From NCBI GenBank assembly GCA_963516705.1, contig CAUQBM010000001.1, forward strand, positions 4,183-68,182: 64,000 nt of DNA, given 5' to 3'. Origin of the DNA: an uncultured Candidatus Saccharibacteria bacterium (GTDB lineage: Bacteria > Patescibacteriota > Saccharimonadia > Saccharimonadales > Saccharimonadaceae). Under the pieces are notes generated by a model. The model saw only the letters and a list, made by a program, of their open reading frames with translations, had not been told where the DNA came from and did not search any database. Positions 34,440 through 40,833 of this stretch are shown here, piece by piece (the stretch's first letter is position 1; the number at the start of each line of letters is the position of its first letter). The translations under genes and the position numbers were made by a program.

Positions 34440-34529
34440 GGAAGGGTGCAGGAGTGGTTGAACTGGCACGCCTGGAACGCGTGTAACGGAGCAATCTGTT
34501 CGAGGGTTCGAATCCCTCTCCTTCCGCCA
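34440..34529 (+). tRNA. tRNA-Ser(GGA)
   Basis: CACGC-CTGGAAC-GCGTG anticodon arm, long variable arm, GCCA; TGGTATAAT just upstream. Confidence 0.96.
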
Positions 34530-34575: not shown

Positions 34576-34652
34576 TTGAAAAATCGTAGACAGGGGCGGC
34601 TCATCTGGTCGTGAAATAAATAGGTTGTAATTTTTACTAAATAGCTTGCAAA

Positions 34653-34701
34653 ACACTAGATATAGCGGCTATAGTTATTATTGTACGCTATATATATAGC
34701 G
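34653..34701 (+). promoter_or_regulatory. Tandem NrdR-box-like operators upstream of nrdA
   Basis: ACACTAGATATAGCGG (34653) and ACGCTATATATATAGC (34685), 32 bp apart; resemble the consensus acaCwAtATaTwGtg, second box imperfect. Confidence 0.75.
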
Positions 34702-34795
34702 AGCCCATAAATAAACAAAAACACAAGCTACGAAGATAAGCCACCAGATGAGGTGTTGGTGGTTTGTTTTTAAGAGGGGAAATTAAGGAGGGTAT

Positions 34796-37198
34796 GTGAA
34801 AGAAATTAACGTAGTCAAACGTGACGGAACGAAAGAACCGTTTGATGCTAATAAAATTAACACGGCTATTTTAAAGGCGTGCGAAGGTTTGCCGGACCAA
34901 ATTTCTAAGGTCGTTCAGGTGGCGACTGAATTGCAATTGACGCTATTTGATGGAATTACAACCGAGCAATTGGACGAGGCGGTTATTCAAACAGTTCTCC
35001 AAAACGTTAAAGACGACCCAGACTATGATAAAATCGCGGCACGATTATTACTGAAAACTGTCTATAAGCAGATTTTGGGCGATTATGAAACGGCGGAAGA
35101 ATTGAAAAAGCTTCATGCGCGCGAATTTCCGAAATTTGTTAAGGCGGCGGTAAAAGAAGGTTTGCTGGATAAGCGTATGGCCGACGGTCGATTTGACTTG
35201 AAAAAGCTGGCGGCGGAACTTGATCCAGCGCGTGATGATTTGAGCAAGTATTTGGGCGTAGTGACTAATAAAAATCGTTATGCTCTTCGCAAGCAAAACG
35301 GTTCACCAATTGAAACGCCTCAGTTTACGCATATGCGTATTGCTATGGGGCTTAGTTATAACGAATCTGACCCAACAACTGCAGCGATTGAGTTTTATAA
35401 TCACATGAGCAATTTGGAGTACGTTCCAGGCGGCTCAACGCGAGTTAATGCTGGCGGTTCGTTCCCGCAACTCAGTAACTGCTTTTTGCTTAATGTCGAT
35501 GATGATATGGAATCAATTGCTAAGGCTGTTCGCGACACGATGTGGATTGCTAAAGGTACGGGCGGAATTGGCATTGGCTTTACGAAGCTACGTGCAGCGG
35601 GCAGTCCAGTTAAAACCACCAACACTGAATCTACTGGCCCAATTCCATTTATGAAGATGATTGATACGGCGCTTTTTGCGGTTTCTCGTAAGGGAAAAAA
35701 GGCTGGTGCGGCTGCAATTTACATGGAAAACTGGCATCTGAATTTTGATCAATTTGTCGACCTTCGTCAAAACTCTGGCGACCCATATCTAAGAACCAGA
35801 TTTGCAAATACCGCGGTATTTATCTCTGACGAATTTATGAAGCGAGTAGAAAAAGACCAAGATTGGTATTTGTTTGATCCAGCGGAAACTCCAGATTTGA
35901 CGGAATTATATGGCGAGGCGTTTTCGGCGCGATATAAAGAATATATCAAGATGGCGGAAGCTGGGAAATTGCGAACATTTGATAAAGTTCCAGCCCGTCA
36001 GCAATTTAAGCGCATTTTGACCAGTTTGCAGGCGACATCGCATCCGTGGCTAACTTGGAAAGACACGATTAACGTGCGAGCATTGAATAACAATACGGGC
36101 ACAATTCACCTCAGTAACTTGTGTACGGAAATTACATTGCCGCAGGATAAAAACAATATTGCGACGTGTAATTTGGTGAGTATCAATTTGTCGGCATTTC
36201 TCAGTGAAGATAAGACTTGGGATTGGGATAGATTGAAAGAAGCGGCTCGTGCGGCAGTGCGACAATTGGACAATTTGTGTGATATCACTCAAACTCCAAT
36301 TCCAGAAGCAATGCACTCTAATCAGCAAACTCGAGCAATTGGTCTGGGGATTATGGGTCTTTCTGACGTGTTGGAAAAGTTGGGTTATTGCTACGAATCG
36401 AAAGAAGCGTACGATTTGGTTGATCAATTGACGGAGTTCATTAGCTATCACGCCATTGACCAATCGGCTGACTTGGCAAAAGAATTGGGCAGCTATCCAA
36501 CATTTGCGGGCAGTGGCTGGAGTAAGGGAATTCTTCCAATTGATACGGTTGATAAATTGTCGAAAGATCGTGGCGTGAAGGTGAAAATAGACCAAAAGAC
36601 GCGACTGGACTGGGACAGTTTGCGAAAGAAGGTGAAGAAGGGAATGCGAAATGCGACTCTTATGGCAATTGCGCCGACGGCTAATATTGGTCACGTGGCG
36701 GGAACTACTCCTGGAATTGATCCGCAATTTGCGCAGATTTTCAGTCGCTCGACTTTGAGTGGTAAGTTTTTGGAAGTGAACCATAATTTAGTTCGAGATT
36801 TGAAGAAACTTGGATTGTGGGACAATTTGAAAGATGAGATTTTTGCGGCGCAAGGCGATATTCAAGATATTGACGGCATTCCTCAGAATATCAAGGACGT
36901 TTATAAAACAAGTTTCCAGCTCAGTCCGTACGCGTTTATTGAGGTGGCAGCCAGGGCCCAGAAGTGGGTTGATCAAGCGATTTCTCGAAATATGTATCTG
37001 GAGACGCGTGATATTGACGAATATGTGAAGATTTATTCAGAAGCGTGGAAGCGTGGCTTGAAAACGACATATTATCTACACGTTAAACCGCGTCATCAGT
37101 CGGAGCAGACAACAGTTTCAGTTGATAAGATTGCAGAACAAAAAGTCCGCACAAATAGTAAAGTGCGCGGATTTGGATTTGCGAAAATTAATAAATAA
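34796..37198 (+). CDS. nrdA: Class I ribonucleotide reductase alpha subunit with ATP cone; lacks C-terminal Cys pair
   Basis: VVKRDG ATP cone, QLSNCF, SNLCTEI, ATCNL, AIAPTA, LKTTYY. Confidence 0.97.
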   Translation: MKEINVVKRDGTKEPFDANKINTAILKACEGLPDQISKVVQVATELQLTLFDGITTEQLDEAVIQTVLQNVKDDPDYDKIAARLLLKTVYKQILGDYETAEELKKLHAREFPKFVKAAVKEGLLDKRMADGRFDLKKLAAELDPARDDLSKYLGVVTNKNRYALRKQNGSPIETPQFTHMRIAMGLSYNESDPTTAAIEFYNHMSNLEYVPGGSTRVNAGGSFPQLSNCFLLNVDDDMESIAKAVRDTMWIAKGTGGIGIGFTKLRAAGSPVKTTNTESTGPIPFMKMIDTALFAVSRKGKKAGAAAIYMENWHLNFDQFVDLRQNSGDPYLRTRFANTAVFISDEFMKRVEKDQDWYLFDPAETPDLTELYGEAFSARYKEYIKMAEAGKLRTFDKVPARQQFKRILTSLQATSHPWLTWKDTINVRALNNNTGTIHLSNLCTEITLPQDKNNIATCNLVSINLSAFLSEDKTWDWDRLKEAARAAVRQLDNLCDITQTPIPEAMHSNQQTRAIGLGIMGLSDVLEKLGYCYESKEAYDLVDQLTEFISYHAIDQSADLAKELGSYPTFAGSGWSKGILPIDTVDKLSKDRGVKVKIDQKTRLDWDSLRKKVKKGMRNATLMAIAPTANIGHVAGTTPGIDPQFAQIFSRSTLSGKFLEVNHNLVRDLKKLGLWDNLKDEIFAAQGDIQDIDGIPQNIKDVYKTSFQLSPYAFIEVAARAQKWVDQAISRNMYLETRDIDEYVKIYSEAWKRGLKTTYYLHVKPRHQSEQTTVSVDKIAEQKVRTNSKVRGFGFAKINK

Positions 37199-37211
37199 GG
37201 AGGAAATTAAG

Positions 37212-38189
37212 ATGGGAATTTTAGGTTCAGGATTACGCGATGGATTATCACTCCACCCAATTCGTTACCCTTGGGCGTATGATCTTTATAATCAAGCGGT
37301 GGCTAACACGTGGTTTCCAAACGAAGTTCAATTAGTGCAAGATTTGGCGGATTTTGAAAAATTGTCAGATGATGAAAAGCATGCATTGAAAACGGTTATT
37401 AGCTATTTGAACCCAAACGAGTTATTGATTAATAAATCATTGGCGTTCGGTATTTATCCATATGTGAACGCGGCGGAAGCTCAACTATATTTGTCAAAAC
37501 AGATGTGGGAAGAAGCTAATCACTTCATGACATTTGAATACATTATTGAGACGTTTCCGTTTGATCGCGAGGAAATTTACGCTGCGGGATTTGGTAAAAA
37601 ATCATTGGCTGACAAGGCTGACTTCCAGAATAAGCATTTGGATGTGATGCTTGATCCGAATTTGGATATTTATTCGCTGGAAGGCAAGAAGGACTTTGTT
37701 AGGTCTTTGGTGGCGTATAACATCGTGCTTGAGGGAATTTGGTTCTATTCAGGCTTTATGGTTGGTATGAGTTTCCGTCAGCGTAATTTGTTGCGCAATG
37801 TTGGCTCACTACTAGACTGGATTACTCGCGATGAAAATCTTCATTTGACGTTTGGTATCAATCTGCTTTTGACGATTTTGGACGAGAACCCAGAATTGCA
37901 AACGCAGGAATTTGCCGAGGAAATCCGTGGCTTGATTCTGCAGGCAGTGGAGCTTGAGAAGGCTTATAACAAAGATATGCTACCAAAGGGAATTTTGGGA
38001 TTGAACGCTGATTATGTGAACCAATACGTTATGCATATGACCGACCGACGCTTGCAGGAATTAGGTTTTGAGCCTGAATATAACGTGCCAAATCCAGCCA
38101 AATGGATGGCAGCCGCCAATGATACGCTGGAATTGGTGAATTTCTTTGAAAGCACAAACACTAGTTACGAAGTTAATACCACGAAGTAA
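37212..38189 (+). CDS. nrdB: Ribonucleotide reductase beta subunit, class Ic (R2c, Mn/Fe)-like
   Basis: NPNELL (Glu first ligand), EEANHFMTF (Phe at the radical-Tyr position), LEGIWFYSGF, RDENLH, C-terminal FFE...SY. Confidence 0.93.
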   Translation: MGILGSGLRDGLSLHPIRYPWAYDLYNQAVANTWFPNEVQLVQDLADFEKLSDDEKHALKTVISYLNPNELLINKSLAFGIYPYVNAAEAQLYLSKQMWEEANHFMTFEYIIETFPFDREEIYAAGFGKKSLADKADFQNKHLDVMLDPNLDIYSLEGKKDFVRSLVAYNIVLEGIWFYSGFMVGMSFRQRNLLRNVGSLLDWITRDENLHLTFGINLLLTILDENPELQTQEFAEEIRGLILQAVELEKAYNKDMLPKGILGLNADYVNQYVMHMTDRRLQELGFEPEYNVPNPAKWMAAANDTLELVNFFESTNTSYEVNTTK

Positions 38190-38203
38190 TGGGAGTTGAT
38201 GAT

Positions 38204-38599
38204 ATGAACGAATTAGCGAAAGAAATATTAGATACAGTCGAAGTTGGTGCGTTGGCGACGGTGAATGTTGATAGAACTCCTTTGGTGACGCCGCTGCACT
38301 TTGCACGATTGGGTGATTCTATAATTTGGATATCAGAGCCGACTGCGCGCCATTCAGAAAATGCGTTTCGAAACGGTAAAGCGGAATTTGTGGTTTGGGA
38401 TGATAAAAAGCGAGCAGTTTTCTTAAAAACTAACGTGACTGAACTCCCAGAATCTGAGAAAGAGGCGGCAATGGCGGCTTATAAAGAGAAGTTGGCTGAT
38501 TTTATGCCACGTTGTCAAAATCCGCAAATATACGTTGCGCCAATTGGTGAACTTGATGAAAAAACTACAACGGGCAATTGGCTGCATTTTATTGCATAA
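38204..38599 (+). CDS. Pyridoxamine 5'-phosphate oxidase-like (split-barrel flavin-binding) protein
   Basis: GALATV..D.TP.VTPLHF...WIS...ARHSEN; alternative start at 38189 coupled to the nrdB stop. Confidence 0.78.
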   Translation: MNELAKEILDTVEVGALATVNVDRTPLVTPLHFARLGDSIIWISEPTARHSENAFRNGKAEFVVWDDKKRAVFLKTNVTELPESEKEAAMAAYKEKLADFMPRCQNPQIYVAPIGELDEKTTTGNWLHFIA

Positions 38600-38647
38600 G
38601 CACTATATCTAGCGTAAAATTAGTTAAGTAACTACTAAATATAGGGG
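38592..38647 (+). promoter_or_regulatory. Promoter with tandem NrdR-box-like operators for the 59-aa CxxC ORF
   Basis: TTGCAT-17bp-TAAAAT; boxes GCACTATATCTAGCGT (38600) and CTACTAAATATAGGGG (38632), 32 bp apart. Confidence 0.78.
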
Positions 38648-38650
38648 AAA

Positions 38651-38830
38651 ATGAAAATGAACGCAAATCAGATTATTACTGATGACATGACTTTGGAAGA
38701 AAAATTGAGTGCCATTGACGCAGCTCTTAAAGCGGCGCAAGAAGCGGCTGATGATCAAGCAAAGTCGAACGGCACTGTTGCGGCACCAGTTGACCCAGCA
38801 AGTTTGACTATTTGTGACGGTTGCGAATAA
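38651..38830 (+). CDS. Small protein with C-terminal CxxC (candidate stand-alone RNR redox tail)
   Basis: Manual translation MKMNANQIITDDMTLEEKLSAIDAALKAAQEAADDQAKSNGTVAAPVDPASLTICDGCE*; 59 aa, below the track cutoff; has an RBS-like AGGGG and a promoter. Confidence 0.8.
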   Translation: MKMNANQIITDDMTLEEKLSAIDAALKAAQEAADDQAKSNGTVAAPVDPASLTICDGCE

Positions 38831-38892
38831 GGTCCATCAGCAGATATGATTATTGACAATATAGGGTTTTATATTGTATAATCAAGAGTATC

Positions 38893-39792
38893 GTGAAAGC
38901 AATTGAGACTTTTTCAGGATCTAAGGCTATAGAAGAGATTAAACAGTGCGCTAAAAAGGGTGCATCTGAAGGTCTGTATGATCCGAGCCCAAGAAGACTG
39001 CGCATTCCTCTTGAGTTGGCTACTGGTTTGCTTGGTAATGTGGATGTTGTTGTTGAGGGGGCTTGTAATCTTTTGGAGACAACTAAGAAAACCGAGGAGA
39101 ACGAGGGTATTATATTTGCTACGAGTCACCTAACAGACGTTGATGTTTCGACTGTTGCTAGCGTAGCTTCTGAGCTTAGACGTATAGGCATGACAGTAGC
39201 CTCCACTAATATGGATCTTTGGCATCAGAGGATACCATATGAACTTGTTGGGATGGATAACTTTTTTCAGGTTCCGTATGGAAGAGATCCGTCTGCGGAA
39301 AAAGGTGCCATTGATAATAAGTACGCGTTACCGTTTAATGGTGACGATTACTTAGGTCTGCAAGAAAAAATAACAGATAGTGGACTTTCTGTTATTACTG
39401 CAGCGCATAACCCGATGAGCAATATTGGGATAAAAAATGACGGTGAACTGCCAGAAAAGGCGGGTAAATTAGCTCCTCATCTAAGCCTGGCGACGGGTGC
39501 CACCATAATTCCTGTACTTATGCAGGTTGAGGGTCAGAAGAGAAATCCTAATCAACTCAATGACAATGCGATACATCTAAAGTGGCTTTTGGGTAAAAAA
39601 GTTGTGCGACTGGTATTTGGTGAGACTATTAAGCCTAATCCTGATGAAGTTGAAGCTTATGCCAATGTTTCGCATGAAGCGTCTTACTCAAAGGCGGCTC
39701 GTGAAGAGCAGTGTCGCATATTGGAGGCGTTTGGTGTGAAGGCGATATTGGGGTATATGCGTGATAAATATGATATGGTATTGGCTGCGTAA
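38893..39792 (+). CDS. Divergent PlsC/LPLAT-like acyltransferase, paralogue 1
   Basis: IIFATSHLTDVDV (HxxxxD), GATIIPV, VRLVFGETI; TTGACA-18bp-TATAAT promoter. Confidence 0.65.
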   Translation: MKAIETFSGSKAIEEIKQCAKKGASEGLYDPSPRRLRIPLELATGLLGNVDVVVEGACNLLETTKKTEENEGIIFATSHLTDVDVSTVASVASELRRIGMTVASTNMDLWHQRIPYELVGMDNFFQVPYGRDPSAEKGAIDNKYALPFNGDDYLGLQEKITDSGLSVITAAHNPMSNIGIKNDGELPEKAGKLAPHLSLATGATIIPVLMQVEGQKRNPNQLNDNAIHLKWLLGKKVVRLVFGETIKPNPDEVEAYANVSHEASYSKAAREEQCRILEAFGVKAILGYMRDKYDMVLAA

Positions 39793-39810: not shown

Positions 39811-40833
39811 ATGACTGCAGGAATAGATAAATTTGCTCCAACCCCAGAAGAACAAAAATTGTTCGATGGAGTCTTCCATCCAGGCATCGCTGAAGAGTCT
39901 GATATTGACGTAAAAGAAACTGAGCCACAGAGAGAGGGTTTTTCTCTGTCGGTTGCGCTTGGTTCTCTTAAGAAATGGGTGCGTGGTAGACGAGAAAAGC
40001 ACAGCAAACCTTTTGGACTAACTAACAATTCGGCGGTAGAAAAACTTGAGGCAGCTGGAGAAGAATTGGGACTGCCAGAAACAGACGTTCGGCTTTCCTC
40101 TGGACTTAAGCTATTGATGGGCTTAATGCATGGCAAAAAGGAAGTTGAAATAATTGGCGAAGATATCTTAATTGAAGCCGCCAAAAAAGCCAAAGAAGAA
40201 GGCAAGGGAAGTGTTATAGCGCCAACACATTTCAATGGAGAGGATGTTCCTACAGCTAGTTATTTGGCGTCTCTGTTGAACAAAATTAATATTGGCGTAG
40301 CGTCGACTAATAGAGATTGGATTAAGAAGGGCGTTGGCGGAATCAACCTAGAGGCTATACAGTATCTTGCGTTTGGCGCTAAAAACTTTTTTGGTGTGCC
40401 ATATGAATGGGTAGATAAAAAGAGTAAAAAACCAGTTCACTTTTCAACAGACCATTATGAAGAAGCGGTTAAATTTGTTGAGGATGGTGGATCCTTGGTT
40501 TTGGCTGGATATTCAGCGGATGACTCAGTAGGTTCAAAGCCTCGCAGTGAAATGGGCTCTGCAGCGATTCATACGGCATTGAAATCTGGCGCAGACCTGA
40601 TATTTGTTTACGTATCGTCAGAGGACAAGAAACTTACTATTAGGGTCATGGAAGATGAAGACGGTATGTTTGCGGCGTTTAGCAATTCATATAGAAAGGC
40701 ACTAGAGATGAAGGATTCTGATGCATCCGAGCGTTTATTATCGTCATGCAAAGAGTACTTAAAAGACAGCGAAATAGGTAGAATTATAGCAGAAGAATAT
40801 AAGCGCCGATCGGACAAAAATAAAGCCAAGTAA
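39811..40833 (+). CDS. Divergent PlsC/LPLAT-like acyltransferase, paralogue 2
   Basis: VIAPTHFNGEDV (HxxxxD); GVASTN and NFFGVPY shared with paralogue 1. Confidence 0.6.
   Translation: MTAGIDKFAPTPEEQKLFDGVFHPGIAEESDIDVKETEPQREGFSLSVALGSLKKWVRGRREKHSKPFGLTNNSAVEKLEAAGEELGLPETDVRLSSGLKLLMGLMHGKKEVEIIGEDILIEAAKKAKEEGKGSVIAPTHFNGEDVPTASYLASLLNKINIGVASTNRDWIKKGVGGINLEAIQYLAFGAKNFFGVPYEWVDKKSKKPVHFSTDHYEEAVKFVEDGGSLVLAGYSADDSVGSKPRSEMGSAAIHTALKSGADLIFVYVSSEDKKLTIRVMEDEDGMFAAFSNSYRKALEMKDSDASERLLSSCKEYLKDSEIGRIIAEEYKRRSDKNKAK

Follow-up and report, generated by a model that had tools for sequence, protein, structure and literature searches.

Introduction

The closest described precedent for the system reported here is the class II ribonucleotide reductase (RNR) that is split into NrdJa and NrdJb in Pseudomonas aeruginosa (PMC4520616; PMC5704485). 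The catalytic chain NrdJa has no C-terminal cysteines, and NrdJb binds near its C-terminus and supplies dithiol exchange in trans (PMC4520616). Class I RNRs almost exclusively carry a Cys pair themselves, according to surveys (PMC9669993; PMC9531940; bioRxiv 2022.04.23.489257). The fused tail enters the active site, reduces the disulfide and is then re-reduced by thioredoxin (PMC6572854, PMC11903788), and in yeast RNR it can serve the adjacent subunit (PMC3618301). The locus analysed here lies in a window of 64,000 nucleotides (nt), which is the whole stretch of DNA studied, on contig CAUQBM010000001.1 of an uncultured Candidatus Saccharibacteria bacterium. Its nrdA gene encodes a class I alpha subunit without C-terminal cysteines, and a small gene downstream encodes a protein with a terminal CxxC motif. 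Judged by homology, this small protein is the detached tail of NrdA, and it quite probably acts as a dithiol relay in trans that leads from thioredoxin or NrdH to the disulfide of the active site.

The window system would work like NrdJa/NrdJb, in that the catalytic chain has no C-terminal cysteines and thiol-disulfide exchange would come from a separate gene, but by its sequence features it is not a member of split class II. Unlike the B12-dependent NrdJ, it is class I, with nrdB adjacent and class I profiles as the best matches. Unlike NrdJb, a folded six-Cys zinc domain, the small protein has 57 amino acids (aa), two cysteines and a helix only, and class I tail genes are often unlinked and are carried alone by phages. 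As in the fused class I tail (C695/C698 of B. subtilis NrdE, consensus CXXC), one residue follows the CxxC; the differences are an own gene and start, NrdR boxes, an added helix and the lack of a covalent tether. With thioredoxin, glutaredoxin and NrdH the small protein would share the role of a small CxxC protein serving RNR, and NrdH is under NrdR regulation (nrdHIEF operon). Identity with these redoxins was rejected, in agreement with the initial annotation: there is no Pfam or NCBIfam redoxin match, the model has one long helix and no beta sheet, and the CxxC is at the extreme end. Aeromonas phage Aeh1 reportedly forms its class I alpha from two polypeptides (nrdA-a/nrdA-b), split by a homing endonuclease gene. 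That split is said to cut the catalytic barrel, whereas here the barrel is whole and the redox tail alone is detached. Initially, no published account of the arrangement was known. For class I, a literature search in which subscription journals were thinly covered turned up none either, though tables of the surveys might list such sequences; class II has its precedent in NrdJb.

Results and Discussion

Tail-less NrdA and the small gene

The nrdA product matched the NCBIfam profile PRK06539 with 1323 bits (cut-off 988) in the profile search, and the match ends at position 788 of 822. The barrel, the thiyl Cys and the reducing Cys pair (C229/C443/C458) and the YY dyad (Y759-Y760) of class I alpha subunits are present. 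Cys residues are at positions 29, 229, 443, 458, 495 and 532, with none beyond 532 and zero downstream of the YY pair, as had been annotated from the start; the C-terminal Cys pair of class I alpha subunits is missing from this chain. Among the matches listed, 119 of the 120 closest relatives also have 800 aa, so the end of NrdA is not a sequencing error, and a frameshift, raised initially as a possible objection, is ruled out. It is scarcely credible that frameshift, readthrough or ribosomal frameshifting restores a full-length NrdA. Frames do sometimes overlap in relatives where the tail gene abuts nrdA, but the constant length of the relatives speaks against such recoding, and so do the junction frames, which vary over 24 loci (0, 1 and 2 all occur), most tail genes having their own start codon. 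At this locus the reading was rejected on gene order, as the small gene lies 1.45 kb beyond the nrdA stop and behind two other genes. The GFGF motif near the end of NrdA is a candidate docking site for the small protein; a GF motif is also found upstream of the tail in fused relatives.

The open reading frame (ORF) 38651-38830, which ends with ICDGCE and a stop, had been reported as absent from the ORF track. It is present with its terminal CxxC, and its start is probably the second ATG at 38657, because conservation and Shine-Dalgarno spacing favour this codon. It is a real gene, because it has 353 close homologues, its family comprises 276 clusters at 50% identity (E up to 0.001), and synonymous change is in excess. 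Compared with seven genus orthologues, it has 162 synonymous and 83 non-synonymous codon differences, with 202 of 307 base differences at third positions, and the possible objection that the ORF is not conserved falls away. A named match, 81% identical, is in Candidatus Nanosynbacter. A CxxC at the end is found in 130 of the 150 best clusters. Across 44 host and phage copies, D46, P47, C53 and C56 are the sole invariant columns, and the helix residues L17, A19, I20 and A23 are nearly invariant. AlphaFold2 predicted a single helix (residues 13-38) and a short turn ahead of the cysteines, with a mean predicted local distance difference test (pLDDT) of 77. No named family was found for the small protein in Pfam, NCBIfam and PHROGs; phrog_14482 was the best PHROGs match, weak and limited to the helix (E=0.0018), and the ESM Atlas matches are hypothetical-protein clusters alone.

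Homology to fused tails

The GTDB set was scanned with the pattern P[IVL]DP-x5-C[DE]xC[QE]-stop, which omits CTN leucine codons, and at least 120 stretches were found, 80 of them with flanks. In 17 of these loci (Parcubacteria, Gammaproteobacteria metagenome-assembled genomes, Mumia, Demequina, Jiangella and Nakamurella) the motif forms the end of an NrdA chain that is 53-64% identical to that of the window. Another 19, mostly of Microbacteriaceae and Saccharibacteria, have it as an ORF of its own right behind a Cys-less nrdA. The other 44 have it apart from nrdA; among them are a likely chance match (L227) and an interrupted gene that is probably fused (L250). At L250, a distant nrdA is broken by stops just ahead of the tail motif, possibly in a TGA-recoding organism. 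The stand-alone tail peptides at L204, L215, L233 and L217 are in mobile-element-like contexts of Leifsonia and Clavibacter and on a phage-like contig. When a profile of the 17 fused tails was searched against the 27,304 stop-to-stop ORFs of the genome, the small ORF ranked first (E=0.0028, next 1.8), in a test that is partly circular, the tails having been collected with a peptide-derived pattern. The comparison with NrdA tails that had been suggested at the outset came out in favour of homology.

A quick-method tree of 86 NrdA cores, rooted at the midpoint and drawn without a clade test, requires at least five changes between fused and tail-less forms, and in it the split forms of Saccharibacteria and Microbacteriaceae lie apart, with fused actinobacterial enzymes between them. 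Therefore, the tail was lost several times, or it was split and then re-fused. At the Microbacteriaceae junctions the nrdA stop and the tail start often overlap. The predicted fold of the fused Mumia relative, from a 16-row alignment, is a poor model (mean pLDDT 58, tail below 50). From these comparisons, the ancestral nrdA of the clade would have ended in a flexible linker and a tail of the form (C)P[VI]DP-x5-CxxCQ, and a stop plus a restart would have cut the tail off as its own gene.

A terminal CxxC is able to bind metal, the beta subunit of the locus is class Ic-like, and many copies of the peptide stand alone or in mobile contexts. A general mini thiol or metal-binding protein (e.g., for an Mn/Fe beta subunit or in oxidative stress), with a mere resemblance to the tail, is nevertheless very improbable, as it is the entire PxDP-x5-CxxCQ motif, beyond the CxxC, that ends the alpha chain in fused members of this clade, and the gene is found at the nrdA stop, with overlapping stop and start codons in several loci.

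Co-occurrence and NrdR boxes

A sample of 201 genomes of the class was searched with NrdA and with peptide profiles. NrdA of the window type (67-100% identity) was found in 32 of them, and in all 32 its end has no cysteine and the small gene is present. In 19 of these genomes the small gene follows the nrdA stop at no more than 400 nt, and in 13 it is farther off. Among 106 genomes belonging to neither NrdA group described here, the peptide was found in two, both fragmented genomes of family f20; a third, weak match was rejected, as it contains stops and lacks the motif. A phylum-wide pattern scan of 301 genomes was positive in three, that of the window and two with fused tails; this is an undercount, since CTN codons for leucine are left out of the pattern and four known positives escaped it.

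Tandem NrdR-box-like sites had been noted upstream of both nrdA and the small gene, and both pairs were located with the same spacing (Table 1). NrdR boxes are described as two 16-bp elements with 15-16 bp between them (PMC13584703). Two such spaced boxes are found at this locus and nrdR is found in the genome, above the family cut-off, as expected for an NrdR regulon. A second, divergent NrdR-like gene is at G000 C9:7160-7642. Loose tandem NrdR-like pairs number 13 in the genome; the top score of 30 belongs to the small gene and to a class III nrdD-like operon, followed by a pair on C4 (29.5, 33 bp apart, no nrd gene there) and by nrdA (29). At G000 C7:38499-41314, tandem boxes lie ahead of what is apparently nrdDG, the genes for an ATP-cone protein of 708 aa and for a radical-SAM activase.

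The second box of the tail gene overlaps its ribosome-binding site. At least one NrdR box is present in nine of nine genus orthologues of the tail gene. Core boxes upstream of unlinked small genes were counted in 10/13 loci of the window clade, 8/26 of a more distant clade and 26/44 of the GTDB set (one match here is inside an ORF, and some loci are near-duplicates); in shuffled sequence they occur at 1-2.5%, and none was found in the same interval of adjacent or fused tail loci. The predicted boxes link the stand-alone peptides with RNR by evidence other than the protein motif, and the detached tail gene of the window is apparently co-regulated with nrdA by predicted NrdR sites. Genes that moved off nrdA would have gained NrdR boxes and so have been kept in the RNR regulon. 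The initial proposal of a tail split off as a separate, co-regulated gene agrees with the homology, the co-occurrence, the adjacency in 19/32 genomes and the boxes. The further claim of an own -35/-10 promoter stood in part, as the consensus scan misses it and a weak candidate with a layout like that of the nrdA promoter was seen by eye. The scan gave 12 promoter sites against a shuffle mean of 10, and it is position that speaks for the one of nrdA.

Phage copies

The helix-type peptide was identified in 23 IMG/VR phage records, and three of these copies are 81-82% identical to the small protein of the window. The RNR barrel domain (alpha) was found in none of the 23 records, nor in any of the 12 that are at least 90% complete; the expectation that the peptide is confined to carriers of tail-less NrdA did not hold. 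No NrdA of more than 60% identity was found in an annotated phage collection, among the 5000 matches listed for the NrdA query only. NrdR control of the phage copies was not supported, with boxes in 2/23, far upstream. Two phage records have two tandem copies (L175:6004-6308 and L177:176-477), one of the helix type and the other with a Microbacteriaceae-type end. Phages may carry the tail gene to raise the turnover of the host enzyme.

Second NrdA clade and the proposed relay

A more distant NrdA (about 36-44% identity) was found in 63 of the 201 genomes, a grouping that rests on the matches listed and leaves 40 weaker matches outside. Of these enzymes, 25 have a fused tail, 35 are tail-less, one has a tail without the last Cys, and two ends are unseen. 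Free peptides of this clade have 32-51 aa and are unlinked to nrdA; the searches detected them in 21 of the 35 genomes with a tail-less enzyme, in five of the 25 with a fused tail and in the one with the degenerate tail. One such peptide of 41 aa matches the last 23 positions of the NrdA profile PRK07207 (E=0.014) and resembles the fused tails of related genomes, and its sister enzyme in the tree keeps the tail fused. Three loci have the look of intermediates: L135 (G093), where a free peptide accompanies a fused tail that has lost the last Cys, and L349 and L350 (G020, G051), with intact fused tails and an NrdR-boxed free peptide elsewhere.

Several observations weigh against a relay in trans. 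The peptide was not detected in 14 of the 35 tail-less genomes of the distant clade (seven of family f30, two of f29 and five of f20); some of these are fragmented, and several of f30 are 92-98% complete. Family f30 (G032, G036, G048, G087, G120, G171 and G186) has a tail-less NrdA in all seven genomes and no detected peptide in any: patterns were at control level, profiles were negative, and NrdR boxes were found at nrdA only, save one site in G032. In the five f20 genomes, the loose pattern gave chance matches only. The tail-less NrdA of these genomes may have another route, or the peptide may be too diverged for detection. Furthermore, five genomes hold an intact fused tail and a free peptide together, the 23 phage records hold the peptide without RNR, and the genomes in the sample are kin, so that the counts are non-independent. 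The co-occurrence proposed initially was thus found throughout the window clade (32/32) and not in these 14 genomes, and, as predicted, no free peptide was detected in 20 of the 25 genomes with a fused tail. A CxPC motif is located near residue 745 in the distant-clade NrdAs L066, L068-L070, L073 and L074, while the same loop in the window NrdA has no Cys. This internal CxPC is found in tail-less f30 and f20 enzymes and also in one fused f24 enzyme, and is a candidate alternative relay.

The same 14 genomes and the five with both forms would fit a tail-derived accessory or regulator whose effect is limited to a boost of activity, or that mimics the tail in competition for the active site; thioredoxin, NrdH or a small thiol would then re-reduce NrdA directly. 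Dithiothreitol and like small reductants can reduce RNR active sites directly (PMC5704485; PMC4520616), and phage carriage without RNR could be modulation. We consider such a role unlikely. The peptide is retained throughout the window's clade despite reduced genomes, its CxxC is invariant, and NrdR-type control implies production at low levels of deoxyribonucleoside triphosphates (dNTPs), in line with a positive role. The near-exclusive presence of a Cys pair in class I RNRs (PMC9669993) also speaks against it.

The preferred reading is the dithiol relay, the steps of which are modelled on the known chemistry of fused tails. The C229-C458 disulfide of NrdA would be reduced after each turnover by the terminal CxxC of the free protein, which would in turn be re-reduced by thioredoxin or an NrdH-like protein with thioredoxin reductase and NADPH (reduced nicotinamide adenine dinucleotide phosphate). 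The added N-terminal helix probably docks on NrdA, perhaps on the GFGF end, and so stands in for the covalent tether, and the free protein would either remain bound or diffuse. Genes for thioredoxin, a thioredoxin reductase-like protein (match just below the family cut-off) and a glutaredoxin/NrdH-like protein are present in the genome, on C11, C2 and C5, respectively. A glutaredoxin gene is next to ssb at C12:20065-21602, on a phage-like or foreign contig.

Neighbouring genes

Coordinates of the features are collected in Table 1. NrdB was aligned to 1syy, the Chlamydia R2c, and has E at the first-ligand site and F at the radical site. With Phe in place of the radical Tyr and Glu as the first ligand, it is class Ic-like by sequence, with a putative Mn/Fe cofactor. 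The PNPOx-like gene is located between nrdB and the small gene; it is absent there in most relatives and is outside the conserved nrdA/tail unit.

Table 1. Features of the nrdA locus in the window
Feature	Position	Strand	Basis or remark
Sigma-70-like promoter of nrdA, TTGCAA-18-TATAGT	34646..34675	+	consensus scan, 9/12 matches
Tandem NrdR-box-like 16-mers of nrdA (34653-34668, 34685-34700), 32 bp apart	34653..34700	+	
nrdA, class I RNR alpha, 800 aa, single ATP cone	34796..37198	+	profile match, residue positions, length of relatives
GFGF motif near NrdA end (G792-F795)	37169..37180	+	invariant in 26/26 aligned clade members
nrdB, class Ic-like beta subunit, Phe at radical Tyr position	37212..38189	+	best PDB match 1syy
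PNPOx-like flavin-binding protein gene	38204..38599	+	Pfam PF01243, E=2e-8
Possible weak tail-gene promoter, TTGCAT-17-TAAAAT, 8/12	38593..38621	+	by eye; below scan threshold
Tandem NrdR-box-like 16-mers of tail gene (38600-38615, 38632-38647), 32 bp apart	38600..38647	+	
Detached tail gene (57 aa) with N-terminal helix, linker and PxDP-x5-CxxCE end	38657..38830 (alternative start 38651)	+	
Terminal CxxC (C53, C56)	38813..38824	+	invariant in 44 host and phage copies

Downstream, ORFs 38893-39792 and 39811-40833 have no Pfam match and an HxxxxD motif each, which is reminiscent of acyltransferases. A sigma-70 promoter with 12/12 matches is located ahead of them at 38853-38882, and contigs of related strains give them little or no cover. 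Upstream, related strains have an extra 1.4-2.4 kb between tRNA-Ser(GGA) (34440-34529) and nrdA, which suggests an insertion hot spot. Two RNA runs gave one contig each spanning 34695-38831; these come from a related strain with many differences, and such contigs cannot show transcription.

Conclusions

New here are the helix-bearing form of Saccharibacteria, separate splits within a second clade of NrdA, including intermediates that have both forms, the link to NrdR and the exception of family f30. A broader proposal is made tentatively, with doubt slightly prevailing: class I RNR may repeatedly have made its redox tail a third, separately regulated subunit. This would be a minimal redoxin of non-thioredoxin fold, with a docking helix in Saccharibacteria, and its amount would set dNTP output. 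Phages without RNR would capture only this gene of 50-66 residues, among the smallest auxiliary metabolic genes, and speed up the host enzyme outside NrdR control.

Tethering and disorder make fused tails hard to study. A tail that occurs free in nature lends itself to titration, mutation and trapping by itself, so that re-reduction, its rate and the partner redoxin become testable. Under the relay reading, a function would be given to an unannotated small-protein family, and it would be seen how nrdA genes of oral Saccharibacteria that look defective could function. The carriage of the tail gene by phages points to a possible new viral strategy of supplying dNTPs.

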